A stretch of DNA of 64,000 bases from Planctomycetota bacterium (GTDB lineage Bacteria; Planctomycetota; GCA-002687715): contig NZBC01000036.1 of assembly GCA_002687715.1 (NCBI GenBank), positions 4,322 through 68,321 of the forward strand, given 5' to 3'. The position numbers were made by a program, and so were the translations under genes. Below the pieces are notes generated by a model. That model searched no databases, had not been told where the DNA came from, and saw nothing but the letters and a program-made list of their open reading frames with translations. Of this stretch, positions 4,652 through 39,619 are shown one piece after another. Within the stretch, counting starts at the first letter, position 1. Every line of letters starts with the position of its first letter.

Positions 4652-4787
4652 AAGCGCCGGACGAATGGCAGCCCGACCTCCGACCTCGAAGTCGACTCTC
4701 CCGGGAGCGCGAACCTCCACGTCCGCTCCGGCTGCGGAAGTGGGGATCGCAGTGAGTTGCCCCTCCGAACTTGCGAAGCACCGCCGA

Positions 4788-5255
4788 TCAGTCGGCGTCT
4801 TCTTCCGGAGCGACGCGCCAGCGCATGTACAACCGTCGGACCTCAGGGATGCAGCACTGACCCGAGGGCGTCTTCGTGAGGCATGCCGCTGCCGGCGATT
4901 CGGACTTCTCGATCAAGCTGCGCAAGCGAGTGGGGTCGTTGTTGCGGGCGTCGGTTTCGATGTCGTCCGCGGTCATGCCGAAGCAGGGACAGACGGGCGA
5001 CTCGGGGTGCTTGGGCCAGACGGGGTGCCGCAACACGGTGATGGGGATGGAGGTGCCCCACGCGTCGAACCACGCGACCTCGCAGGTCGCGCTCGTGCAC
5101 CAATACGCTTCGTGGGCGAGGGAAGCGCGGAGGTCTTCGGTGAGCCAGGCCACGAGGGTCTCGTCGGAGACGGGTTCGCCGGTGCCGCCGCAGCCCTCGG
5201 GAGCGGGACAGGTGGGTTCGAGGGGTTCGGGGTCCTTGACGAAGGCCTTGTTCAT
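4788..5255 (-). CDS. cysteine-rich putative metal/Fe-S binding protein
   Basis: Start moved to MNKAFVKDPEP (ATG 5255-5253), which overlaps the DUF3501 stop (ATGA). Multiple Cys motifs (CPAPEGCGG, CTSATC, CPCFGMTADDIE as in BFD-like 2Fe-2S domains, CC). It is the last gene of the rubrerythrin/Fe-S operon. Confidence 0.45.
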   Translation of the reverse strand: MNKAFVKDPEPLEPTCPAPEGCGGTGEPVSDETLVAWLTEDLRASLAHEAYWCTSATCEVAWFDAWGTSIPITVLRHPVWPKHPESPVCPCFGMTADDIETDARNNDPTRLRSLIEKSESPAAACLTKTPSGQCCIPEVRRLYMRWRVAPEEDAD

Positions 5256-26951: not shown

Positions 26952-29498
26952 ATGAATCGCAGGGCACTCCCGCTCCTCCTCGTCGCGCTTCTCGGCACCA
27001 CCTCGTGCTCGCAGGAGCCGGACGTCGCCAGACCGCCCGCTGCGGGTGACGTCGCACGGTCCCGCGACGCGCTGAGGGCGTTCGTCGATCGCTATCGCAA
27101 GAGTCCCCGCACCTTCGGCCCGGAAACCCAGGACTGGGCGGACGGGGTCTGGACGTATCAGGCCTGGCGCAGTCTCCTGCTGGCCGGCGTCCCTGTCGAC
27201 CCGACCGCGGGCGCACCTGACGATCGCGCGGCTGCCTTGCGGGGTCTTCGCCGAGATCAGATCCCCACGCTCCTGGTTAGCCGACTGAAGCTGGCGCGAC
27301 TCTGGGGACTGAAGGTCGAGGAGGCCGGGGCCCCAGGCGTACCGTTCCTGCCCCTCATGACCTGGGTGGGGTCGCCGCCACTGGAAGAGCTCGAAGCGAG
27401 GGTGACTGCGGACGTGATGCGGGGCCGTAAGGTCGACGTCGCGGCGCTGAAACAGATGGTCGGATTCTGGCGCGGCCCCGACGGCGGCTATCGCTACCCC
27501 GCCGGCCTCGGCGAGATCTACCCGCGCATCCTCACCAACGCGACCACCTTCACCGCGCCACCGAGACCCCACCTGGGGACTTCTACGTGCGGTGCGATCG
27601 CCGCGGCCGTAGCCTGCCTCACGCAGGTCGGCGTGCCCGTCCCCCGGCTGGACGCGGTCGTTCTGCGGCTACGCGCGCTGCGCTCCGGCGGACATTGGAG
27701 TCAGCAGCGGAACCCACTTCACGACGGAACCGGTCTCTGGGCGACCTGGAACGCACTGCGCGCCCTGTCGATGCTCGGCGTCTCGAGCGAAGCGCCGGAC
27801 GAGATCGCAGCGTGGCTCCGCACTCTGCGCCATCGCGACGGCGGCTTCGCCCATGCCCTCGACGAGCCCGCGAGCCTAGAAGCGACGTGGCTCGCGCTCG
27901 AGTGTCTGCGCCTCATTCAGCGCCCTCTGGGTCCGATGCCATCGAAGCCAGCCGCCGGACGACTGCCGAAGGCGAACGGCGCCAACGACGCATCACTGAA
28001 GCCACTGCAGGCCGTCGTACAAATGGGACCCGATCCAGCGGCTTCGGTGGTCCTCGCCCGTCGCGCGGGCGCGGACCTGTTGCTGCTGAAGAGCCTCGAC
28101 CACGACGAGCCCGCCCTCGTCGCGCGCGCGCGGCGGCTCGCCGCCCGGCTGCCCGGACCGAAGCTCGAGATCGCGTGCGTCCGAGAGGAGCACCGCAGCG
28201 CATGGGGCGTCGAGGGCATCGGGTACGTGACCCACTGCTCGGACGCGGTGTTCGCTCCGGCGGTGACGCTGGGCCAACGTGGCCGTCATCGCACGTTCGA
28301 CGAGATCCTCGACGCGTGGAAGGTCAACCGGTTGAGGGGCTGCGTGTTCTTCTCCTGTTCGTATCTGAATCGCGAGCTGCTCGCGCCCGCCTATGACCGG
28401 TCGTCGCGGCGGTTCGCCGACGGCTATGACGCTCTCATGGTCGGCTGGGCGTTCGCGCGCGGCGGCGACCTCATCCGGGACTATCCGTGGCTCCACCGAT
28501 ACGTTGGACGGATGGCGCTCATCGGCAACCATGACGCCCACGGGGACCCGCTCCACTGGTTCCACCGGGGGATGCGTACCCGCACGCTGTTCTTCGCGAA
28601 GGACGCGTCGGTCGCGTCGTTTCAGGAGGCGGTCCGCTTGGGACGCACGGTCGCGGTCGTGCACGGTCCGGTCGCTCCGGCGTACTGGGGCCACCCGACG
28701 TGGGTCGAGAAGGCGAAGGCGCGTCGCGCGGATTGGGATCGCGGACGTCCGGGGTTCACGCCCGGCGAGTGGCTACCAGCCCCGTTCGCCGCTCCGATCG
28801 ACGCGTCGACGCAGGTCGAGATGCCGTGGGTCACGAGAGGCTTCGGCATCCTCGTTCGTGCCGCGGGCCGCATCGCCGACGACGCGATGCCGCACGAGGT
28901 CACGGTCCGGGTCGGCGGGGAGGATGAGCCGCGGGTCCCGCTGCGCATCGTCCCCGCGGACGGCAAGCGACCTCCGGCACTGTGGGCGCCCCTCCCGGAT
29001 CTGAAGCCTGGTGATCACCTGGTCGTCGTAGAGGCGTTCGGTCAGACCTCGCGCCAGACGCTGCGGTGGGTCGCCCCCGTCGCGATCGCGACTCCTCCGA
29101 CGATGGCTCCACCACCGGCCCTCGAGTTCCGCGGCGCGAACGAGTTGCCGTGGGTGAGCAACACCTCGCTGGCGCCGGGCGACTTCGAAGGGTCGCTGCG
29201 GATCGTGTGCAACCGCGCGGACTTCGCGCTACGCGCGTCGCCTGGGAAGTCGCGCTTGCGCGTGAAGTGGCGTGGCGGGAAGGCCGCCGGTCCGCTGCAG
29301 TTCTTCGTCGACGGCGCGTCCGTCGGCGCGGTGACGCCGAACGGCTCGCCCGGCGAAACCAGCTTCGATTTCGACGGCGCGACAGCCCGCGCCCACCGCG
29401 TCACGTTGCGCACCGCACTGCCCGGCTGGATCTCATCGTTCGATCGCCCGAAAAGCGACCTCGAGTTGCTCCTTCTCGCCGTGGAGACGCGCCCATGA
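26952..29498 (+). CDS. large lipoprotein with prenyltransferase/terpene-cyclase-like alpha-alpha repeats
   Basis: Start MNRRALPLLLVALLGTTSC (lipobox) at 26952. N-terminal half has repeated ...DGGF/DGGY.. W..L.AL motifs like squalene-cyclase/prenyltransferase repeats. C-terminal half unassigned (HxH/GNHDAHGD metal-like motif). Confidence 0.5.
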   Translation: MNRRALPLLLVALLGTTSCSQEPDVARPPAAGDVARSRDALRAFVDRYRKSPRTFGPETQDWADGVWTYQAWRSLLLAGVPVDPTAGAPDDRAAALRGLRRDQIPTLLVSRLKLARLWGLKVEEAGAPGVPFLPLMTWVGSPPLEELEARVTADVMRGRKVDVAALKQMVGFWRGPDGGYRYPAGLGEIYPRILTNATTFTAPPRPHLGTSTCGAIAAAVACLTQVGVPVPRLDAVVLRLRALRSGGHWSQQRNPLHDGTGLWATWNALRALSMLGVSSEAPDEIAAWLRTLRHRDGGFAHALDEPASLEATWLALECLRLIQRPLGPMPSKPAAGRLPKANGANDASLKPLQAVVQMGPDPAASVVLARRAGADLLLLKSLDHDEPALVARARRLAARLPGPKLEIACVREEHRSAWGVEGIGYVTHCSDAVFAPAVTLGQRGRHRTFDEILDAWKVNRLRGCVFFSCSYLNRELLAPAYDRSSRRFADGYDALMVGWAFARGGDLIRDYPWLHRYVGRMALIGNHDAHGDPLHWFHRGMRTRTLFFAKDASVASFQEAVRLGRTVAVVHGPVAPAYWGHPTWVEKAKARRADWDRGRPGFTPGEWLPAPFAAPIDASTQVEMPWVTRGFGILVRAAGRIADDAMPHEVTVRVGGEDEPRVPLRIVPADGKRPPALWAPLPDLKPGDHLVVVEAFGQTSRQTLRWVAPVAIATPPTMAPPPALEFRGANELPWVSNTSLAPGDFEGSLRIVCNRADFALRASPGKSRLRVKWRGGKAAGPLQFFVDGASVGAVTPNGSPGETSFDFDGATARAHRVTLRTALPGWISSFDRPKSDLELLLLAVETRP

Positions 29499-32400
29499 CC
29501 GGGGCGTGGAGGATGATCGTCGCCGGCGTTCTCGCCGGTGCGGCGCTGGGGGTCGTGGAGGCCATCCTCCTCGGAACCGATGGAGAGCTCGGCTCGATCG
29601 TCTTGCCGGTGCTCGCCCGCTACGCATGGGCGGGGGCCGGCGTCGGCGTCTTCGGCGCACTCGCCGTCGGGCTGGTGGGGCGGCGGCCGGTCCCGTGGCG
29701 ACGCGTCGTCATCGCGGGCGGCATCGCGGCGGGCACCCTGGCGGTTCTCTACTTGAAGAACCAGTTCAAGCGCGACCCGGGAGGCCCGGCCGGCGCGGGC
29801 ATGGTCGCGACGACGGCCACCGTCCTCGCGGCACTCGCCCTCGCCGTCGTCTTCCCCGAGCGGAGCCATCGCGGATCGATCTCCCGCGGCCTCGCTCTGA
29901 TGCTCGCCGCGGCCGGACTCGCCATCGTCGACCCGCGTAGCGCCCGCGGTACCTATCCGTCGCTCGACCTGATGCTGCTGGGCTGGGGTATCTCCACGGC
30001 GGCGTTCGGGATCGCCGCGTTACTCACCACGACCGGCCCGCGGACGGGAATCGCGACCACCATCCTCGCGATCGCCGCGCTCGGTGCGATCCGTCTGTCG
30101 GAAGATCCCGCGCGGATGTCCGAGCTCGTGCTGTCGTCGAACCGATGCGACCTGCTCGACCGCACGCTGGTCGCGATCGGCGTGCGCGAGCCACGCACCC
30201 TCGACGATACCCGCGACGTCGTCGACTCTGCTGCCATCATGGATCCGCCGGTGCCGCTTGCGCAGAGCCGCGATCGGTGGCGGGCAATGCGGAAGGGCAA
30301 GAAGCCGTTGTCGTTGGTGTGGGTGACGCTCGATGCCGTGCGCTCGGATGCCACCGGCCTCAACGGCGGACGGCACACTCCACGCCTGGACGCACTAGCA
30401 GCGGTCGGGTTCGGTTTCCCCGCGACCTGGAGCCAGGCGCCGGCTACGGGTTTCAGCGTCGAGTCGTTCACGACGGGCCGCTACACGTCGCGCACCGCCG
30501 TCGCCTTCGGCTGGCGGGCCGGGCGCGCATCCGTGCAGTTCCCTTCCATCGCCGAGCACCTCGGCAAGCGCGGGTTCCGTACCGGGTTCATCACCGGCCT
30601 CCACCAGAACAAGTTCGACGACCCGGAGAACAAGACGTTCTCACGCTTGCCCAACGGGTTCCACGAGCTGGTCACGTCGCCCTCCGACGTGGATGCCAAT
30701 CGAACCGCGGACCAGGCGCTCGAGTGGATCGACAAGAACCGGGCCGGCCGGTTCTTCGCGTGGGTTCACTACTTCGATCCGCACGCGCCCTATGTGCCGC
30801 GGGACGGGCTCGCGGCCGGCGCCGAGCCACGGCGGCTGTGGGAGGGCGAAGTCACGTATGCCGATCGCGCGCTGGGCAAGGTCCTCGACGGCCTGAAGGA
30901 GCGCGGCCTGGAGGACGAGGTCGTCGTCGTGGTCCACTCCGATCACGCGGAGGCGTTCGGCGAGCACAACCGCTTCTTTCACGCGTCCTCGTACTACGAC
31001 ACGCAGATCCACATCCCCCTGGTCATCCGCGTGCCCGGGATGAAGCCCGCGCGCATCGATCGCCCGACGTCCAACGTAGACCTCTTCCCCACTCTGGTGG
31101 ATCTGCTCCAGGTCGAGGCGCCCGACTATCTACAGGGTCACTCCCTGCTGCCGGTCATGCTCGATCCGAGGCTGGAGTGGCCGAAGTTCATGCTGGCGGA
31201 GACGACGATCCTCGAGGATGACGGCCGCTGGCCGGACGATCGGCTGCGAACGATCTCCGACGGTCGCTGGAAGCTCATCGAGTTCCTCTCCGGAAACGCT
31301 CGACTGCTCTTCGATCGCGTCCAGGACCCGCTCGAGACCACGAACCTCGCCGAAGAGCGGAAGGACGTCGTCCGTCGACTCCTCGGGTGGCTCGACGCCG
31401 TCGACCAACGACTCGATGCGGCCGACGCGCGCTATCAAGCGACGACCGTGAAGCTCTCGATCACCGAGTTGCGAAAGCAACTGAACAGCCGCGACGCGCA
31501 CACCCGGCTCACGGCGTTCCAGCGCTTGATGTTCGGCGGCCGGCCGGACGCGCTCGGCCAGCTCGAGGACGAACTCGAACAGCTACGTCCGCAGGCCGCC
31601 CACAGCCTGCTCATCGTGCTCGACCACTACCTCATGGCGGACACGGAGGGGTTGGGCGTCGAGATCCCGTTGCCGGACCAGCCCTCGCCGATGCGGTTCC
31701 GGCTGCTGGAACGGTACGCACGGTCACCGCGGTTCTGGGATCTTCCGATGCCCGAGATCAGCGACTCGATCACCACCCCCGAAGCGGTCGCGGTGGCCGA
31801 AGCGAGGGCCGCGCGTGGACTGCCGGAGCCGCTGACCGCGATGAAGCAGGTCGAGCCCGCATCCCGAGAGCTGTGGAACTTCTTCGCGCCGATCCTCGCC
31901 CGGGGCCGTGATCCGGCCGGCGCGCAGATCATCATCGCGCAGACCCAGCGCAACGACGCCAAGGAAGCCTGGATCGTCCGCGGACTGCGCGCGCTGGCGG
32001 CGGCGGATCCGATCGCGTTCTTGAAGGTCGTCGTCCACATCTGGCCGAGTGACGTCCGCCGCGTGAGCCCGGCCAGGCTCGAGGCCATCGCCGACATGGC
32101 GATAGGCATCGAGCATCCCCACGCCTGGCTGGGATTGCTCGCGCTCCACTCGACGCCCGAAGCGTCGGCCGCGGCGCCGCGGTTGGAGGCCGCACTCTTG
32201 AAGCGGTCCCCGGCGCTCACCCGAGAGCGCGTCGTCCAGCTCAGCCGCCGGTGGGGACGGGCCCGGTTCCTCGAAGGCCGCCTCGACGCCGTTGCCGCCC
32301 TCGAAGCGACGCTCGCCCTCGTTCCGAAGAACACCGACCTCCCCACTGACCAGATCCGCAACGAGCTGACGCGCGCGCGGATCACCCGGCCGACCCACAT

Positions 32401-33130
32401 CCCGGAGTCGCTCGTCGTCCAGCGAGTCACCGGCATCGCGAGCGGCATCGATCAGCTCGTTGCCGGCCCGCCACGGGTTCACCTGAAATGGAGCGGAAAG
32501 TCGCGGCTCCCCCTCGGCCCCGAACGGGTCCCGTTCCTCGGCATCGTGTGGCGACAAGGCGACCGCCAGCAACAGGCAGGCATCCTCGGCCTTCCTCGCA
32601 TCGCGCTCCCCGCGGGCGGCGAGGAGACCTTCGTGATCCCGCTCGACTATCCACGCGGCACCGGCACCTGGCGCCTTGCGGTGACGCTCGAGGACACAAT
32701 CCTCCCCATGGCGTCACCCGCGCCGACATACTCCGTCCCCAAAGTCAGCAAGTGGGAAGGACCCGCCCTCGCGCGGGTCTGCACCGCCTGGCCGCTGCCC
32801 GTTCGCCTCCTCCCCGACGGCGCTCTGTTCGAGGCCTGGGAAGACGGCGACCGCGGGTTCGCCCTGCCGGCGCTCGAGCTACCGAAGGGCAAGGTCACCA
32901 TCCACATGACCTTCCGCGCGTGGTTCGACTCCGACAAACCTTGGCGGCCTCTGGTCTCGCTCGGCGCCACCGGCAAGCGCCACCTCACGGGCGCCGCCAA
33001 GTCCGGCGCCGAGACCACGCTCTCGGTGACCCTGGACGTCCCCACGGCCGGCCGCCACGAACTGTTCGTGCGCTGGCCGCTCCCCGCATCGATCGTTCAC
33101 CTCTACGGCGTGAACGTGGTCGCGCGATAG
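29495..33130 (+). CDS. polytopic membrane protein with sulfatase-like (alkaline-phosphatase superfamily, LtaS/EptA-like) domain and long C-terminal HEAT-like/beta-rich extension
   Basis: Start ATG 29495 overlaps the upstream stop (ATGA). ~8 N-terminal TM helices, then VTLDAVRSD...HYFDPHAPY...VVVHSDHAEAFGEH sulfatase-family metal/active-site motifs. No CxPxR formylglycine motif, so a transferase-type rather than a true sulfatase. 1211 aa. Confidence 0.6.
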   Translation: MTGAWRMIVAGVLAGAALGVVEAILLGTDGELGSIVLPVLARYAWAGAGVGVFGALAVGLVGRRPVPWRRVVIAGGIAAGTLAVLYLKNQFKRDPGGPAGAGMVATTATVLAALALAVVFPERSHRGSISRGLALMLAAAGLAIVDPRSARGTYPSLDLMLLGWGISTAAFGIAALLTTTGPRTGIATTILAIAALGAIRLSEDPARMSELVLSSNRCDLLDRTLVAIGVREPRTLDDTRDVVDSAAIMDPPVPLAQSRDRWRAMRKGKKPLSLVWVTLDAVRSDATGLNGGRHTPRLDALAAVGFGFPATWSQAPATGFSVESFTTGRYTSRTAVAFGWRAGRASVQFPSIAEHLGKRGFRTGFITGLHQNKFDDPENKTFSRLPNGFHELVTSPSDVDANRTADQALEWIDKNRAGRFFAWVHYFDPHAPYVPRDGLAAGAEPRRLWEGEVTYADRALGKVLDGLKERGLEDEVVVVVHSDHAEAFGEHNRFFHASSYYDTQIHIPLVIRVPGMKPARIDRPTSNVDLFPTLVDLLQVEAPDYLQGHSLLPVMLDPRLEWPKFMLAETTILEDDGRWPDDRLRTISDGRWKLIEFLSGNARLLFDRVQDPLETTNLAEERKDVVRRLLGWLDAVDQRLDAADARYQATTVKLSITELRKQLNSRDAHTRLTAFQRLMFGGRPDALGQLEDELEQLRPQAAHSLLIVLDHYLMADTEGLGVEIPLPDQPSPMRFRLLERYARSPRFWDLPMPEISDSITTPEAVAVAEARAARGLPEPLTAMKQVEPASRELWNFFAPILARGRDPAGAQIIIAQTQRNDAKEAWIVRGLRALAAADPIAFLKVVVHIWPSDVRRVSPARLEAIADMAIGIEHPHAWLGLLALHSTPEASAAAPRLEAALLKRSPALTRERVVQLSRRWGRARFLEGRLDAVAALEATLALVPKNTDLPTDQIRNELTRARITRPTHIPESLVVQRVTGIASGIDQLVAGPPRVHLKWSGKSRLPLGPERVPFLGIVWRQGDRQQQAGILGLPRIALPAGGEETFVIPLDYPRGTGTWRLAVTLEDTILPMASPAPTYSVPKVSKWEGPALARVCTAWPLPVRLLPDGALFEAWEDGDRGFALPALELPKGKVTIHMTFRAWFDSDKPWRPLVSLGATGKRHLTGAAKSGAETTLSVTLDVPTAGRHELFVRWPLPASIVHLYGVNVVAR

Positions 33131-33199
33131 GAACTCGCGCCGTAGGAGGGACCGAAGTTCCAGAGGAGAGCCCGGTTCTCCTGATCTCCTCCCAAGAAA

Positions 33200-33230
33200 G
33201 CGGGCCGGCGTCGAGAAAACGCCGGCCCGC
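33200..33230 (+). terminator. GC-rich hairpin downstream of the sulfatase-like gene (GCGGGCCGGCG-N9-CGCCGGCCCGC)
   Basis: Perfect 11-bp inverted repeat 70 nt after the stop. No U-tract, which is common in high-GC genomes. Confidence 0.45.
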
Positions 33231-33614
33231 AAGACCGCATCCCCGCCTGGGACGAGAAGGAGACCGTTGATGGGTCAGACACGTCCCCCGAGGGGGACGG
33301 TTCGGAGGTGCAGCCTGCGGACCGGAGCCAGAGCAATGGAGGTGGTGGAGCGAACCCCAATTTGCCGTTCGCCACTGATTGCTGAAGGACAGAGAGTGTC
33401 GCTCACAGCGAGATGTAGCCTCCCGGTCGAGCCGGGATTCGGGGCCCACCCCACCACCATGTATGACGACGTCGGGACGAGCAGCTCGCCACGACGGGTA
33501 TCCGTATGACGCTTGCCCGGCCGGCGGGCAAGCAGCTGTTTCTGGTTCGCACGGGGTCTGCGCTCGACGTAGACGCCGGGCTGGGTGGCGAGAGCCTGCC
33601 GCGCGTTGTCGAGA

Positions 33615-34028
33615 TCAGTCCCGGGCATCGTCTTCGGCCTCCTCGCCCGTGGTCTGCTCCTCACGCTCTCGGATCAGCGACTTCACGCGATCCAGATCGC
33701 CGGGCGCGAGCTCGCGCGCCGAGAGGAGCTGGCAGACCAGCTCGGTCACATCTCCGCGGAACACCCGATCGGCCACGCGGCTGACGACGTCCTGGCGGAC
33801 GTCCTCCTCCGTGACGGTGGGCCGGTACACGAACTGCCGGCCCGTCACGCGGTGGATCAGCAGCCCCCGCTTCTCGAGGCGGGAGAGCAGCGTGGCCACC
33901 GTGGTCACGGCGAGATCTCGCTGGGTCAGCAGGGCTTCATGGATTTCCGACACGGTGCCTTCACCCCGTTGCCAGAGGGCCTGCATGACGCTGAGCTGCA
34001 GATCGCTGAGTAGAGGACCGTCGGTCAT
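33615..34028 (-). CDS. BlaI/MecI/CopY-family transcriptional repressor
   Basis: 137 aa. N-terminal winged-helix (LSVMQALWQRGEGTVSEIHEAL...TVATLLSRLEKRGLL) and C-terminal dimerisation helix with an acidic tail, typical of the penicillinase-repressor family. Confidence 0.85.
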   Translation of the reverse strand: MTDGPLLSDLQLSVMQALWQRGEGTVSEIHEALLTQRDLAVTTVATLLSRLEKRGLLIHRVTGRQFVYRPTVTEEDVRQDVVSRVADRVFRGDVTELVCQLLSARELAPGDLDRVKSLIREREEQTTGEEAEDDARD

Positions 34029-34076
34029 GGTGTTGTGCGAGGTCGCGGATGCGGGGAGGCAGGGTGCATCGACGAC

Positions 34077-34118
34077 AGATGTAATACTACAGATGTAATA
34101 CTACATATGTAATACTAC
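34077..34118. promoter_or_regulatory. tandem BlaI/CopY operator: three 14-bp repeats (AGATGTAATACTAC x2, ATATGTAATACTAC) giving two TACA-N2-TGTA dyads
   Basis: Read directly. This AT-rich island sits in a 68% GC genome, 50 bp upstream of the repressor start and 120 bp upstream of the divergent thioredoxin-like gene. TACAGATGTA (34088-34097) and TACATATGTA (34102-34111) match the canonical CopY/BlaI box TACAnnTGTA. Confidence 0.65.
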
Positions 34119-34239
34119 TCCTGGGACGGATCTTCAACCTCAGATCGCAGGAAGCTGCAAATCGAGGGGCCGCACCATCTTCTGACCTCACCCTGCTCGC
34201 TCGACGGAGACCGCGGCTCAAGAGGATTATCATGCCGGC

Positions 34240-35388
34240 ATGACGTCGCTCATCTGCGTTCTGCTCGCCAGCCTCGGCCCCGGGTTCGACGAGCCGCCCG
34301 TCTCCAGCTCCGAGTTCCGGAGCCTCCACGGCTCCCTGGTTCCGAAGCAGCGCGCCCTGTGGGAGACGATCCCGTGGTCGGTCGACCTCGTCGCCGCGGT
34401 CGATCGAGCGCGCCGCGAGAAGAAACCGCTCTTCATGTGGTCGATGAACGGCCACCCCATGGGCTGCACGTGAAACAACGGGGTGCTGGACCGTGCGTCC
34501 ACGTTCTCCGATCCCGACATCATCGCGATGCTCCAGACCCGTTTCGTCCCGGTCGCGGTCGACGTGTGGTACGAGGAGCGTCGCCAGGATCCGGCTGGGA
34601 AGCTCTACCGCCGGATCGTGAACCAGCGCGACGGCATGCGGCCCGGGCGCACGACGCAGGGGTTCTATCTCTTCACGCCGACGGGGGACTTGCTGCAGGG
34701 CTGGAACAACCGCGACGTCAGAAAGGTCAAGCGCAGGCTCCGCAAGGCCCTCGCGTCGTACACGCCACCCACCAGCGACCCCGTGGGCGCCGGGTCCCTC
34801 GACCGCCGCTTCGAGCGGACGCCGCCCGTCGGTGCGGTCGTCGTGGACGTCTTCTCGCGCATCGTGAAGGCGAGCTGGCCACCGTCGCAGTCCCGATGGG
34901 ACCGCGTACAGCGTGAAGCCACCGGGCGCGACCACCTGTGGCTCCTGCCGGCTGAGATCACCGAGATCGTCGCCGGGCGCTGGCCCGCAACGGTCACCCG
35001 GCGCATCGCGCGCTTCCACGTCATCGACAACACCCGCGGCGAGCCGCCGATGTGGAGATCGAACGAGGTGACAGCCGCCGCCCTGAAGCTCGAGTCGACC
35101 GCCGATGGGTACCGCCTGGTCGGGAAGATCCAGGTCAAGAGCCGGAAGGGCGATCGCGGCTGCGACGCTGCCCTGCTCGGCCGGGTCAGGGTGAAGGAGG
35201 GCCGCCTCACGCGGCTCGACATCGTCGCCCGCGGATCCTATTTCGGTCATGGACGCTACACGGGCGGGGCACCTCCCGGTTCCTTCACGCTCGCGGTCGC
35301 GTTCCGACTCGCCGACCCGAAGGCGACCTCGACCCGGGTCCCGCCCCAGGGCTCGCGCGATCTCAACGGATACCTGAGAGCGCGATGA
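34240..35388 (+). CDS. thioredoxin-fold protein interrupted by an in-frame TGA at the active-site position (candidate selenoprotein, or pseudogene/split gene) with ~200-aa C-terminal domain of unknown function
   Basis: Track ORFs 34240..34473 and 34483..35388 are in the same frame, separated by a single TGA (34471-34473). The joined sequence ...KKPLFMWSMNGHPMGCT-[TGA]-NNGVLDRASTFSDPDIIAMLQTRFVPVAVDVW...YRRIVN...QGFYLFTPTGDLL reads as a contiguous thioredoxin fold (beta1, active-site turn, alpha1, beta3, cis-Pro-like region). A 5-bp hairpin GGACCGTGCGTCC lies 15 nt after the TGA. The stop overlaps the SDR start (ATGA). Confidence 0.45.
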
Positions 35389-36179
35389 CCCGAATGCTCC
35401 CGGACGCGACGTTCGCGAATCGAACCGTCCTCGTGACGGGCGGCGGGACCGGACTCGGCAAAGAGACCGCACACCGGTTCGGTGAGCTCGGCGCGCGAGT
35501 CGTCATCGCGAGCCGCAAGGCCGAGCATCTCGATCCCGCCGCCGAGGAGCTGCGCGGCGCCGGCGTCGACGTCCTCGCCGTACCGACCGACGTGACGCGA
35601 CCCGCCCGCGTGGCCGCCCTGCTCGAAACCGCCGTCGAGCGCTTCGGGCGGATCGACGTCCTCGTGAACAACGCGGCGGGCAACTTCTACTGTCCGACCG
35701 CGGATCTCAGCCCCGCGGGCTGGAAGGTCGTGATCGACATCGCGCTCAACGGAGTCTTCTACTGCAGCCGCGAGATCGGCCGCCACATGATCGAGCAGGG
35801 CGGAGGCCGCATCGTGAACGTCGTCGCGACGTACGCGTGGACGGGCGGCCCCGGCACCGCGCACTCGGCGGCCGCCAAGGCCGGCGTCTTGGCGCTCACG
35901 CGGACGCTCGCGGTCGAATGGGCTCAGCACGACGTCCGCGTCAACGCCGTCAGCCCGGGTCCCTTCCATTCCGACGGGGCGAAAAAACGGCTCTGGCCCG
36001 ATGCGAAGACCGAGGCCGCGATGAAGGCCCAGGTCCCGCTGCAGAGATTCGCCACCCGCCACGAGGTGGCCGATGCCATCACCTGGCTGGCATCACCCTT
36101 CGCCGATTATGTGAATGGCGAGGTGCTCGTGATGGACGGCGGGGCTCATCTCGGGCGGGGGTTGACCGGCGAAGCGTGA
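35385..36179 (+). CDS. SDR-family oxidoreductase
   Basis: 264 aa. TGGGTGLG cofactor motif, NNAAG, catalytic S...Y(xxx)K (YAWTGGPGTAHSAAAKAG), PGPF. Confidence 0.85.
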   Translation: MTRMLPDATFANRTVLVTGGGTGLGKETAHRFGELGARVVIASRKAEHLDPAAEELRGAGVDVLAVPTDVTRPARVAALLETAVERFGRIDVLVNNAAGNFYCPTADLSPAGWKVVIDIALNGVFYCSREIGRHMIEQGGGRIVNVVATYAWTGGPGTAHSAAAKAGVLALTRTLAVEWAQHDVRVNAVSPGPFHSDGAKKRLWPDAKTEAAMKAQVPLQRFATRHEVADAITWLASPFADYVNGEVLVMDGGAHLGRGLTGEA

Positions 36180-36336
36180 AGCGCGGGTGGACCTGCAAGT
36201 CGGCTTTTTCGTTTTTTTGGGCCATATGGACAGGGTAGACTGCTACGTTCCCCTATCCCCCAATCTCGGAACGGTCGCACGACGCGAACTACTGCCGGTT
36301 CGACGCTCGCGCAGGCATCAAGAACAAGGTGGGTCC

Positions 36337-37908
36337 ATGTCCAAGCGTAGTTCGCCGGCCATCGTCTGTGCCCTGGTCGTGCTCAGTGCCGTCTCGGCGC
36401 TCCCCGCCCAGATCCTGTCCAAGGACCTCGTGGTCAGCGGCCTTTCCCGACCGGTCCTCGTGACCGCTCCCGTGGGGGACCCTCGTCTGTTCATCGTCGA
36501 GCAGGGCAACAGTGGTGGACTGGTGGCTAGGATTCGCATCTTCAAGAACGGTGCGTTGCTCGGGACCCCGTTCCTGAACGTCGACAGCCTCGTTATCAAC
36601 AGCGGCAACGAGCGCGGCCTGCTCGGACTCGCGTTCCACCCGAACTACGAGCAGAACGGCTACTTCTACATCAACTACAACGACACCAGTGCTCGCACGG
36701 TCATCCGGCGGTACACGGTGTCCGCAAACCCGGACGTCGCGAACGCGGCCTCCGGCCTCACGTTGATGACCATCAATCAGCCGTACTCGAACCACAATGG
36801 TGGGATGCTCGCATTCGGTCCGGACGGCCATCTGTACATCGGCATGGGTGACGGCGGCTCGGGGAACGACCCCGGCAACCGCGCGCAGAACGTGAACGAC
36901 CTGATGGGCAAGATGCTCCGCATCGACGTCGACAACCCGGCACCTGGTCTGAACTACGGCATTCCCGCCGGCAACCCGTACGCGGGTCCGACCGCCGGCC
37001 GCGACGAGATCTTGCACGTCGGCCTGCGGAACCCGTGGCGGTTCTCGTTCGACCGCGACAACGGCGACCTGTACATCGGTGACGTCGGCCAGAACGCGCG
37101 CGAGGAGATCTCGTACGCCGCCGTCGGGAGCAGCCCGTTGAACTTCGGCTGGCGGTGCATGGAGGCCAACGGCTGCACTGGTCTCTCCGGATGCACCTGC
37201 TTCGCGACGTCGTTGGCGGACCCCGTCCACGAGTACTCCCAGGGCGGCTCGACCGGCTGGTGCATCCCCGGCGGCTACGTCTATCGCGGCTGCCAGTACC
37301 CGGAACTCTACGGCCAGTACTTCTTCGGCGACTACATCACCGACAAGATCTGGACGGCCGAGATCAATCCCGCGGGGACGGCGCTCATAGGCGTCGCGGA
37401 CCGGACCATCGAGCTCAGCAGTGGTGTCAACGGACTCGCGGCATTCGGCGAGGACGGCTTCGGCGAGCTCTACATCGTGGCCCGTGACGGCGGGACGGTG
37501 CACCGTATCAAGGCAACGACGGGCGGCTCCACACTGACCGTCTTCGGCACGCCGAGCATCGGCAGCACGATCAACCTGTCGCTCAACGCGCCGGGCAACC
37601 CGAGTCGCGCGTTCATCCTGGGCATCTCGGCTTCGACCGCGCCGGGAATCGTCCTGGGGGATGGTCGGATCATTCCTCTGACCGCGGACCCCCTGCTCCT
37701 CTACGCCCTGACCACGGTGCCCAACGGTCTGTACAACCCGGTGGGCAACCTGCATTCGCTGCTCTCGAACGCGCTCGTCCCACTGGCCATCCCCAACACC
37801 CCGGCGATCATCGGCGCGGAGTTCTGGATGGCTTACATCGTCCTCGAGCCGACCGCGTCCGCCGGCGTCCAGATCATCTCCTGCCCGACGTCGATCCTCG
37901 TGCAGTAG
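36337..37908 (+). CDS. PQQ-dependent sugar dehydrogenase (soluble glucose/sorbosone dehydrogenase-like beta-propeller) with C-terminal ~100-aa extension
   Basis: Start MSKRSSPAIVCALVVLSAVSALPAQ (signal peptide). GDH/6PGL-family motifs (GLLGLAFHPNY, NHNGGMLAFGPDG.LYIGMGDGG, RNPWRFSFD, LYIGDVGQN, FGWRCMEA). Confidence 0.8.
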   Translation: MSKRSSPAIVCALVVLSAVSALPAQILSKDLVVSGLSRPVLVTAPVGDPRLFIVEQGNSGGLVARIRIFKNGALLGTPFLNVDSLVINSGNERGLLGLAFHPNYEQNGYFYINYNDTSARTVIRRYTVSANPDVANAASGLTLMTINQPYSNHNGGMLAFGPDGHLYIGMGDGGSGNDPGNRAQNVNDLMGKMLRIDVDNPAPGLNYGIPAGNPYAGPTAGRDEILHVGLRNPWRFSFDRDNGDLYIGDVGQNAREEISYAAVGSSPLNFGWRCMEANGCTGLSGCTCFATSLADPVHEYSQGGSTGWCIPGGYVYRGCQYPELYGQYFFGDYITDKIWTAEINPAGTALIGVADRTIELSSGVNGLAAFGEDGFGELYIVARDGGTVHRIKATTGGSTLTVFGTPSIGSTINLSLNAPGNPSRAFILGISASTAPGIVLGDGRIIPLTADPLLLYALTTVPNGLYNPVGNLHSLLSNALVPLAIPNTPAIIGAEFWMAYIVLEPTASAGVQIISCPTSILVQ

Positions 37909-37940: not shown

Positions 37941-38411
37941 TCACTTGTCCAGGCGGGTCGGCTGCAGGATCACCTTCTCGAACCAGATGCGTTCCACGCG
38001 CGCCTCCTCCCTGGGGAAGAGCTGCTCTTGCGTCATGGCGAGGAGACGTCGCTTCAGAGCGAGCTTGCCGTGGCGGGTGTCGAGGTCCTGGGCGGAGAAC
38101 TCGGGGAGGCGGGTGTGTATCGCGTCGGTGAGGTGGAGCTTGCGACCCGCGATGTGGCCGGCGGGGTCTTCGAGCTCCTTGCCGGCGCGGTAGCTGAAGA
38201 TGTACTCGAGGACGGGGTAGATCTCGGGGTCCCCGTTGAGGCGGAGCGAGACGGGGCCGATGTGGTTCTCGACCTGCTCTTCTTCGTAGTAGGCGTCGGA
38301 GCCGCGCATGCGCTCGGTGTGCTGCTGGCTCCACCCGGCGGGGCCGGAGGAGAGGGCGGCGATCGCCCCGAGGCCAAGCACCAGGCCCGTGATGATGAGC
38401 GCGAGCTTCAC
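37941..38411 (-). CDS. fliL: flagellar basal-body-associated protein FliL (paralog 1)
   Basis: 156 aa. GTG start overlaps the stop of the upstream fliL paralog. Single N-terminal TM (LALIITGLVLGLGAIAAL), then the FliL periplasmic domain pattern (Y......F..N...). Last gene of the flagellar operon. Confidence 0.65.
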   Translation of the reverse strand: MKLALIITGLVLGLGAIAALSSGPAGWSQQHTERMRGSDAYYEEEQVENHIGPVSLRLNGDPEIYPVLEYIFSYRAGKELEDPAGHIAGRKLHLTDAIHTRLPEFSAQDLDTRHGKLALKRRLLAMTQEQLFPREEARVERIWFEKVILQPTRLDK

Positions 38412-38872
38412 TGGATCTTGAAATCGCGGAAGAGGATGTCCTCGATCATCCCTTTCTGATCGGGGAAGACGACCTTCTGGATCAGCGCGCGCATCTCTTG
38501 CTTGAGGATCTCCTTCTGCTCTTTGGACTCGACGTCCTTCCTCTGCTTGGAGGAGATGAGCATGAGGAAACGGTCTTGGAGCTTCGCCGCCTTGGCGCTG
38601 AAGAGCCCCGGCGCTTCGGCGGGTTCGATCTCGGGCCCAACGCGGTACTCGGCGGTGGCGAGGATCTCGATGAACTCACCGTTCGTGCCGCGGAGGTTGG
38701 TCACGATCTTGGCCAGGTCAAACGCGAGCTCATCGCTCGTGTAGTACCCCTTCGTGCCCCGCTTCGAGGTGTCGATCGGCTCGGGCACCCCGGCCGACCC
38801 GACGATCATGAACGCGACACCGCCGAGCAGGAGAAGACCGCCCCCGCCACTGATGAAAACCTTCTTGTTCAT
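38408..38872 (-). CDS. fliL: flagellar basal-body-associated protein FliL (paralog 2)
   Basis: 154 aa. N-terminal TM (LLLLGGVAFMIVGSAGV), YYTSDELAFDL...NLRGTNGEFIEI FliL-like core. GGGGGAGGGG Shine-Dalgarno upstream. Confidence 0.65.
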   Translation of the reverse strand: MNKKVFISGGGGLLLLGGVAFMIVGSAGVPEPIDTSKRGTKGYYTSDELAFDLAKIVTNLRGTNGEFIEILATAEYRVGPEIEPAEAPGLFSAKAAKLQDRFLMLISSKQRKDVESKEQKEILKQEMRALIQKVVFPDQKGMIEDILFRDFKIQ

Positions 38873-38908
38873 CTACAACCCCTCCCCCGGCAATCAGGGT
38901 GCCCTGGG

Positions 38909-39619
38909 TCACGGCCCCACAGTGCTGATCAGTGCGATGCGGCGTCCCCACGAATCCTGACGCCACGAGGTCTCGCCCCCCCCGGTGGGGCCGTATCCGA
39001 TGGGAATGAACCTCTCGATGGGTATATCGCCCGCGGATGAGAGGTATCTGATGACATTGTCGGCACGTTGCATGGCCAGATGCCACGCTGCTTCCGTACC
39101 GAGACCTTCCTTCCACGCGAAACCTTCCACGCGGATTCGGATATCGGAATACCCCGTGAGCCAGGGGGCCATCGTGTCGAGGACCGCCCGGTGCGCGGTG
39201 GTCAGCGTCGAGGACCCCGGTGAGAACACGAGCGGCGCACCGATCTCGTTGGTCCCGGGTTTCTCCAGCGTGTCCATGACCACCTCACGCAGCGCGTCGC
39301 GATTGGCGTCCGTGATGCGGCCCGATTCGTCGACGAGCAGCTTGGAATTGATGCTCTTCGCCGGGCGGAACAGAACACGATCGGCGCCGAGGTCCATCGG
39401 CTTCTGATCGCTCTTCAAGACGCCTGGGAGGCCGTGCGACATGAGCGCCTCGCGGAACGACGACACGCCGTCGCTGATGAAGCCGGCGCGACGTTCGTCC
39501 GCGAACGCCTCGAGCAGGATGAAGAAGCAGAGCAGGTTCGTCATCATGTCCGAGAAGGACAGCATGTATAGAGGTGCGCCCGGTTCGTCCGCTTCTTCGA
39601 CCTTCTTCTTTTCGCTCAC
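38909..39619 (-). CDS. motB: flagellar motor stator protein MotB (paralog 2, OmpA-like C-terminal domain)
   Basis: 236 aa. TM helix with conserved Asp (LYMLSFSDMMTNLLCFFILL). C-terminal OmpA/MotB peptidoglycan-binding region. Confidence 0.75.
   Translation of the reverse strand: MSEKKKVEEADEPGAPLYMLSFSDMMTNLLCFFILLEAFADERRAGFISDGVSSFREALMSHGLPGVLKSDQKPMDLGADRVLFRPAKSINSKLLVDESGRITDANRDALREVVMDTLEKPGTNEIGAPLVFSPGSSTLTTAHRAVLDTMAPWLTGYSDIRIRVEGFAWKEGLGTEAAWHLAMQRADNVIRYLSSAGDIPIERFIPIGYGPTGGGETSWRQDSWGRRIALISTVGP

Follow-up and report, generated by a model that had tools for sequence, protein, structure and literature searches.

We analysed a window of 64,000 nucleotides (the entire stretch of DNA under study) from a Planctomycetota bacterium and observed a short array of repeats in a 211-bp intergenic region between divergent genes. 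A BlaI/MecI-family repressor is encoded on the minus strand, and a putative selenoprotein/SDR operon lies on the plus strand. The features of this region are as follows.

33615–34028, minus strand: BlaI/MecI-family repressor gene (137 aa, a single Cys, acidic C-terminus; Pfam PF03965)
34074–34119, no strand: predicted operator array, three 10-bp boxes with 14-bp phasing from three tandem 14-bp units, kept in orthologues
34077–34090: unit 1, AGATGTAATACTAC
34091–34104: unit 2, AGATGTAATACTAC
34105–34118: unit 3, ATATGTAATACTAC
34074–34083, no strand: box 1, closest to the repressor gene, GACAGATGTA
34088–34097, no strand: box 2, TACAGATGTA
34102–34111, no strand: box 3, TACATATGTA, a lineage-specific extra unit
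34084–34113, minus strand: hypothetical, weak promoter-like hexamers toward the repressor (ATTACA 34113–34108, 18-nt spacer, TAGTAT 34089–34084; 8/12)
34072–34099, plus strand: hypothetical, weak promoter-like hexamers toward the selenoprotein operon (ACGACA 34072–34077, 16-nt spacer, TGTAAT 34094–34099; 9/12)
34220–34243, plus strand: Shine-Dalgarno-like AAGAGGA (34220–34226) and mini-ORF ATG CCG GCA TGA (34232–34243), its stop overlapping the main ATG at 34240
34240–35388, plus strand: thioredoxin-fold (DsbH/DUF255-like) gene, likely a selenoprotein, with an in-frame TGA at 34471–34473 in the motif GCT-U-NNG
35385–36179, plus strand: SDR oxidoreductase gene (2,4-dienoyl-CoA-reductase-like), its ATG overlapping the preceding stop (ATGA)
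36187–37908, plus strand: GSDH-family (glucose/sorbosone dehydrogenase-like) gene

Direct reading of 34077–34118 gave three head-to-tail 14-bp units, and Tandem Repeats Finder recovered them at 34075–34118 (period 14, 3.1 copies, 96% matches, score 81), in agreement with an earlier note on this DNA that had described three tandem units in an AT-rich island. At 26% GC, this 42-mer is the poorest in GC anywhere in the 64-kb window, whose overall content is 66.7%; the intergenic DNA outside the array is GC-rich (63%). Exact TACANNTGTA occurs twice in the window (34088–34097 and 34102–34111) against 0.03 expected, and none of 100 shuffles reached two copies. Of the relaxed CopY-type core KACANNTGTM, the 64 kb contain three copies, at 34074, 34088 and 34102, each start 14 bp from the next. 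The search for further TACAnnTGTA tandem sites that the earlier note had proposed, run within the window, thus placed all boxes in the array. That note had counted two boxes. The count holds for the exact sequence, but the third, relaxed box at 34074 had been overlooked; its outer half-site is degenerate, as it is in the orthologues L001 and L090. Relative to the repressor start (34028, minus strand), the array is located 46–90 bp upstream; relative to the plus-strand ATG (34240), it is located 122–166 bp upstream.

The three units and the mini-ORF are retained in all five metagenome assemblies (L092–L096) obtained independently from one and the same marine population, one of them a Tara Oceans scaffold and another from a marine metagenome. 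Since these assemblies agree, the array is not an assembly artefact. Across the 232 bases compared (34029–34260), the sole difference was a TA to GA change in the spacer of box 3, so that TACATATGTA of the window reads TACAGATGTA in two of the five assemblies (L094 and L096). This population SNP falls in the NN spacer, a position left free by the consensus.

The adjoining minus-strand gene proved to encode a BlaI-family repressor, as had been proposed. Its product matched Pfam Penicillinase_R (PF03965) over residues 7–120 with 102.5 bits (cut-off 22.6), and it was matched by the solved MecI and BlaI structures with E-values from 5.6e-11 (MecI) to 5e-7, the MecI structures 1sd6 and 1okr covering residues 8–120. 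B. licheniformis BlaI makes contact with the TGT of TACA/TGTA through T43, T46 and R50 (PMC1935004). All three residues are identical in the window repressor in an ungapped alignment with this protein (1p6r), and across 30 relatives each is either invariant or conserved to at least 90%. The scissile Asn101-Phe102 of MecI aligns to Gln100-Leu101 of the window repressor; at the position of Asn101, where the window has Gln, at least 90% of the clade has His (His-Leu). Judged from this alignment, the Gln could mean that cleavage of the repressor no longer happens. The best NCBIfam match was CopY_TcrY (TIGR02698) with 77.3 bits, below its cut-off of 121.95. We looked for the C-terminal CxC-x4-CxC metal-binding motif of CopY and found it absent from the repressor, whose single Cys is C99 and whose tail is acidic. 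A CopY identity was ruled out by the one Cys, the acidic tail and the sub-cut-off score. Cys99 is common to the four orphan-lineage repressors. Redox sensing through it was considered as an orphan-specific trait and rejected: C99 is also present in P0018, which is followed by a 935-aa M56-PDZ protein. The 64-kb window holds no second BlaI gene.

We next turn to the sensor protease that usually accompanies such repressors. An M56/BlaR1-like gene directly follows the repressor gene in 74 of the 80 relatives, and also follows that of the 63%-identical P0005. A phmmer search with the Pfam-verified M56 protein of L004 against ORFs of at least 80 aa found no M56-like ORF in the 64-kb window, and the same search in L001–L003 returned a 22.5-bit remnant only. 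The statement that no BlaR1-type sensor protease is nearby therefore holds for the whole window, and the description of the regulator as an orphan is correct within these 64 kb and established no further than them; other parts of the genome could still encode a paralogous partner protease. CopZ and CopA are likewise missing nearby, as had been noted, the adjoining annotated genes encoding sulfatase-domain, thioredoxin-fold, SDR, GSDH-like, FliL and MotB proteins. Among the six exceptions in the 80 relatives, two contigs end early and four loci (L055, L069, L071 and L084) are truly without an M56 gene. These four are Gemmatimonadota MAGs in which at least 3 kb of downstream sequence is present, and orphan BlaI-family repressors make up ~5% of the clade.

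Three orthologues (L001, L090 and L091) carry an ORF of 189–234 aa that overlaps the repressor gene at its 3' end. The positions of this ORF are given below with the corresponding region of the window.

L001, 4395–4964: M56-like remnant ORF
L090, 558–1262: M56-like remnant ORF
L091, 683–1279: M56-like remnant ORF
Window, 33131–33614: counterpart region

Over its first ~70 residues the remnant is similar to the N-terminal transmembrane part of M56 proteins (L001, E=6e-6), and the remnant ORFs of the orthologues have neither a protease domain nor a Pfam match. In the window the remnant is deleted, and the repressor stop lies 154 nt from a conserved block, versus ~340–380 nt in the orthologues. 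From this comparison we infer that an ancestral M56/BlaR1-like partner gene just after the repressor was lost and that the orphan state reflects gene decay.

The conserved block is itself a side observation of this region. It spans ~123 nt downstream of the repressor gene (window 33339–33461, minus strand; L001 ~4784–4906; also in L090 and L091) at ~80% nucleotide identity across four lineages, whose repressors share only 62–70% protein identity. The block contains an invariant 30-mer, CTGTCCTTCAGCAATCAGTGGCGAACGGCA, is read by ORFs in different frames in different lineages, and is restricted to the orphan lineage among ~100 loci. RNAalifold favoured the repressor-sense strand (-48.5 vs -37.3 kcal/mol) and a long closing stem, GGUGGUGAGG/CCUCACCACC, in which only 3 of 38 pairs show compensatory changes. 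It had no Rfam match, and we regard it as a candidate structured RNA. A second short conserved stretch at 33195–33270 (minus strand) is CU-rich, GGTCTCCTTCTCGTCCCAGGCG, and is followed by a terminator-like 13-bp GC-rich hairpin with a T-rich tail (33230–33200). Both stretches could belong to a ~260-nt small RNA or to a structured 3' UTR of the repressor transcript. We do not count as a gene the ORF at 33275–33664 (minus strand), which shares bases with the 3' end of the repressor gene: it has no family match, and what conservation it shows is nucleotide-level, with frames differing between lineages. A further 9-bp GC-rich hairpin, GCTTGCCCG-CCGGC-CGGGCAAGC (33511–33533), lies ~80 nt past the repressor stop and is followed on the plus strand by a T-rich tail. 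It may terminate transcription arriving from the convergent sulfatase-domain gene, a very large ORF (29066–33130, plus strand; up to 1354 aa) with an N-terminal hydrophobic region and sulfatase/SGSH_C domains, which adjoins the repressor also in L001 and in other assemblies of the population.

We assessed the distribution of the boxes in 80 genome loci encoding repressors at 49–61% identity, mostly from Gemmatimonadota and also from Planctomycetota, Eiseniibacteriota and Acidobacteriota. Exact TACANNTGTA occurs 54 times between 300 bp upstream and 20 bp inside the repressor gene in these loci and the metagenome loci L001 and L004, and once in the remaining ~6 kb per locus of the same set. When one mismatch was tolerated, a box was present in 76 of 85 upstream regions, 33 of which had two, against a background of 2 boxes in 214 kb. 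Successive boxes were 14 bp apart in 34 of the 35 pairs counted at this threshold. The clade consensus, TGTAATAC-TACAnnTGTA-GTATTAC, is essentially the repeat unit of the window. Because 76 of the 85 upstream regions share the box and nearly all pairs share the 14-bp spacing, the array is predicted to be the conserved autoregulatory operator of this repressor clade. The literature searched contained nothing on operators of this BlaI-family clade.

Orthologues were obtained by exact-protein look-ups; a metagenome scan with a single repressor sequence gave one distant locus only. The true orthologues are L001 (63% identity), L090 (70%) and L091 (62%), and the repeat was checked at each of these loci and found to be kept as a double box. 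A footprint of the four lineages left this double box, ACA..TGTAGTATTAC...TGT.GT.G, as the sole invariant intergenic block, the remaining intergenic DNA having diverged in all three orthologues. The window has one 14-bp unit more than each orthologous lineage, and among the relatives compared three boxes were found in the window only. As far as the alignments tell, the clade design is two boxes 14 bp apart, to which the window adds one; this points to a recent tandem duplication of a single 14-bp unit in its lineage.

On the plus strand, annotation and a fold search confirmed that the array borders a thioredoxin-fold/SDR operon. The first gene had been called thioredoxin-like. Its thioredoxin fold stands, but rather than a plain thioredoxin the product is very likely a CxU selenoprotein. 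The in-frame TGA (GHPMGCT-TGA-NNGVLDRAS) aligns to the Cys of GCTCNNG in the full-length homologues P0202, P0204 and P0234. The same TGA codon is present in the homologues of L001 and L007, and the reading frame is conserved on both sides. Structure prediction for the Cys homologue P0204 (pLDDT 85) placed a thioredoxin fold at the N-terminus, and a fold search with this model retrieved Thioredox_DsbH/DUF255-type structures (E=1.9e-4). The window protein itself matched Pfam Thioredox_DsbH with an E-value of only 0.008, and the Cys-containing homologues matched no Pfam family. A hairpin in the position expected of a SECIS element, UGGAC-CGUGC-GUCC(A), lies 14 nt past the UGA and is conserved in three lineages, where the sequence is also constrained by coding; the fold past the UGA is no better than that of shuffles. 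The window contains no tRNA genes and thus no tRNA-Sec. Most of the 120 homologues listed are called as ~300-aa products that start just past the TGA; the family looks like one of widespread, unannotated CxU selenoproteins, with most database homologues annotated as truncated.

The GSDH-family gene is possibly the last gene of the operon. Just downstream of it, on the opposite strand (37941–39619, minus), two tandem FliL-family genes and a MotB/OmpA-like gene indicate a flagellar motor cluster. The divergent pair of repressor and selenoprotein-SDR genes recurs in L091/L102, and in L001 with an inserted 480-aa gene. Selenoprotein homologues in other contexts (L007, L008 and L101) have no BlaI neighbour, and no boxes were found at the selenoprotein loci of L007 and L008.

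A standard sigma-70-type promoter scan of 33000–34500 found no promoter; the hexamers listed above match at a relaxed 8–9 of 12 positions, and promoter rules in Planctomycetes are poorly known. The minus-strand hexamers sit within the boxes, and those on the plus strand overlap boxes 1 and 2. The putative 5' UTR (34112–34245) showed no excess structure (z = +0.74). Rfam gave no match in the whole window at gathering thresholds and, at E<=1 across 33131–34245, nothing over the array or the conserved block.

A three-codon uORF (MPA) with its own Shine-Dalgarno sequence and a stop overlapping the ATG at 34240 was present as the earlier note described. It reads ATGCCGGCATGA at 34232–34243 in all five assemblies, with AAGAGGA 5 nt from its ATG and 13 nt from the main ATG. 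In the L001 orthologue (~2237, minus strand), the homologous TATCATG opens the main frame, ATGGCCTCC..., and the start region of the window shows an apparent 1-nt deletion relative to it. Since this TATCATG is an in-frame start in L001, the uORF of the window is most likely an ancestral start codon that a 1-nt deletion put out of frame, moving the start to the in-frame ATG at 34240, and so a by-product. Stop-start coupling at ATGA is possible, and termination-reinitiation would be a reasonable route for translation of the main gene.

Comparison with characterized operators places the array closest to that of the S. aureus mec divergon (mecA versus mecR1-mecI), by the look of the sequences down to the half-site flanks (CTACA, TGTAATA). 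Both have adjacent TACAnnTGTA boxes between divergent genes, with near-identical half-sites (GACTACAttTGTAGTATATTACAaaTGTAGTA in mec, ATACTACAgaTGTAATACTACAtaTGTAATAC in the window), and the window repressor belongs to the Pfam family of MecI, a winged-helix homodimer. The mec region, TACAttTGTA-gtatat-TACAaaTGTA, has two boxes 16 bp apart, whereas the window has three at 14 bp, a spacing 2 bp narrower. In contrast to mec, the window has no adjacent MecR1/BlaR1-type gene, its predicted target is a selenoprotein/SDR operon rather than a penicillin-binding protein, and Gln-Leu replaces the scissile Asn-Phe of MecI. The S. aureus blaZ and B. licheniformis blaP operators share with the window the TACANNTGTA core and T43/T46/R50 (PMC1935004). 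BlaI operators of blaZ and blaP combine control of a divergent gene with autoregulation, as we propose here, but the two boxes of the blaZ versus blaR1-blaI region are 31 bp apart rather than 14 bp. Induction of bla genes runs through the adjacent BlaR1, which senses beta-lactams.

The KACANNTGTM core is also that of the cop box of CopY/CopR in Enterococcus, Streptococcus and Lactococcus (PMC7253601), where CopY usually has two operators per promoter, 24–39 bp apart (PMC7253601). The extended CopY operator, RNYKACANNTGTMRNY (PMC7253601), differs from the window: in boxes 2 and 3, TAC-TACAnnTGTA-ATA, the place of R is taken by T and that of Y by A, and box 1 fits on one side only. The designation as a CopY/BlaI operator can thus be kept for TACAnnTGTA beside a Penicillinase_R gene, but not for the extended CopY consensus or for the protein, since CopY senses Cu/Zn by C-terminal CxC motifs that the window repressor does not have. 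BlaI-family repressors unrelated to beta-lactam resistance, as in the window, include C. difficile CenIR, P. aeruginosa PvmSR and C. thermocellum BlaI_0696/1845, whose signals are unknown (PMC13492132; bioRxiv 10.64898/2026.08.03.742534; PMC8457756). In C. thermocellum the sites are arranged to take two dimers, hence four protomers (PMC13492132; bioRxiv 10.64898/2026.08.03.742534; PMC8457756), and their motifs are GTCTAT repeats, unlike the boxes of the window. These systems keep an M56 partner, whereas the window has none.

Taken as a whole, these data are probably best explained by the array serving as operator for the BlaI/MecI-family repressor encoded beside it. This 137-aa winged-helix protein would bind as dimers to the KACA-NN-TGTM boxes, which, at 14 bp, would place neighbouring dimers ~120 degrees apart round the helix. 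The boxes cover what appears to be the sole AT-rich, promoter-like stretch of the intergenic region. Binding would shut the repressor's own promoter, and the third box would tighten or extend repression. The register of the boxes could be questioned. A 12-mer, TGTA-N4-TACA, occurs once per repeat and might be the true binding unit, with the TACA-N2-TGTA boxes as by-products; it is the best-conserved core of the four-lineage alignment, and in L001 TGTAGTATTACA occurs once in perfect form, TACANNTGTA only in imperfect form. The L001 sequence, GACAccTGTA-gtat-TACAggTGTC, nevertheless resolves into two boxes with one mismatch each. In 42 relatives TACANNTGTA stands as the only box, while every TGTA-N4-TACA found adjoins a box with no more than one mismatch. 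Because single boxes are common among the relatives and the 12-mer never stands alone, we settled on TACA-N2-TGTA and consider the 12-mer very unlikely. The experimentally defined BlaI, MecI and CopY sites are also TACANNTGTA (PMC1935004, PMC7253601). A CopY-type copper/zinc sensor acting on a metal-related operon seems more improbable still. It would agree with the cop-box core and with CopY_TcrY as the best NCBIfam match, but the score falls well short of the family cut-off, the protein has one Cys and no C-terminal CxC...CxC, no CopA or CopZ is adjacent, and close relatives are paired with M56 proteases.

Which genes the array controls can be stated with differing confidence. Autoregulation of the repressor gene is very likely, judging by position: the distance of the array from this gene matches the 22–110 bp at which the relatives' boxes lie upstream of blaI-blaR1 operons. 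We lean towards the divergent promoter of the selenoprotein/SDR/GSDH-like operon being repressed as well, as in the staphylococcal mec divergon. This is plausible because the array is the only conserved AT-rich intergenic element, the plus-strand hexamers overlap the boxes, and mec and bla provide precedents. The case is positional and syntenic, the relatives' boxes being foremost autoregulatory sites of blaI-blaR1 operons, and the distance to the plus-strand start counts against it, as a ~130-nt 5' UTR would be needed. The array might instead serve the repressor gene only, the selenoprotein operon having an unregulated promoter in the 120 bp before its start. The shared distance to the repressor gene would fit this, the better -10-like hexamers face that gene, and other selenoprotein loci have no BlaI gene and, in L007/L008, no boxes. 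However, the divergent synteny is retained in three lineages, the remaining intergenic DNA is unconserved and GC-rich without a better promoter candidate, and the bla and mec divergons show two-way control. We therefore regard strictly autoregulatory action as rather unlikely.

The ancestral partner having apparently been lost, derepression would need a paralogous M56 protease acting in trans, or else the circuit would stay at an uninduced set-point. A protease encoded elsewhere is our preferred guess, and a tentative one. In the uninduced alternative no inactivating signal exists, and the repressor holds its own level, and perhaps that of the operon, constantly low. The lack of an M56 gene in 64 kb, the decaying remnants in the orthologues, the Gln in place of a near-invariant His at the MecI cleavage-site position and the four Gemmatimonadota loci likewise without an adjacent M56 gene are consistent with such a vestigial circuit. 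Against this, both the repressor and its operator have stayed intact and conserved in five assemblies and three further lineages, with the operator even expanded, so we find a vestigial state somewhat doubtful. Fairly improbable in our view is that the repressor of these marine Planctomycetes was rewired to a protease-independent signal and gates an exported selenoprotein oxidoreductase operon through a three-dimer operator. The signal could then be redox state, selenium, a substrate, or the conserved structured RNA-like element at the former protease site.

In conclusion, the array is probably a genuine canonical operator of the BlaI/MecI type, an expected example that does not overturn current understanding. 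The unusual aspects are the third site, a repressor without a nearby sensor protease, and a selenoprotein operon as the probable target. These are lineage-specific details, mildly interesting and unsurprising. The locus appears to show the decay and re-use of a circuit in which the protease was lost, the operator was expanded, and a selenoprotein operon is the neighbour. More broadly, the TACAnnTGTA operator rule established in Firmicutes is extended to a large uncultured clade, whose sampled loci are mostly from Gemmatimonadota, with Planctomycetota, Eiseniibacteriota and Acidobacteriota also represented. The 14-bp double box provides a ready motif for predicting the regulons of BlaI/BlaR1-like pairs with unknown signals in these phyla.
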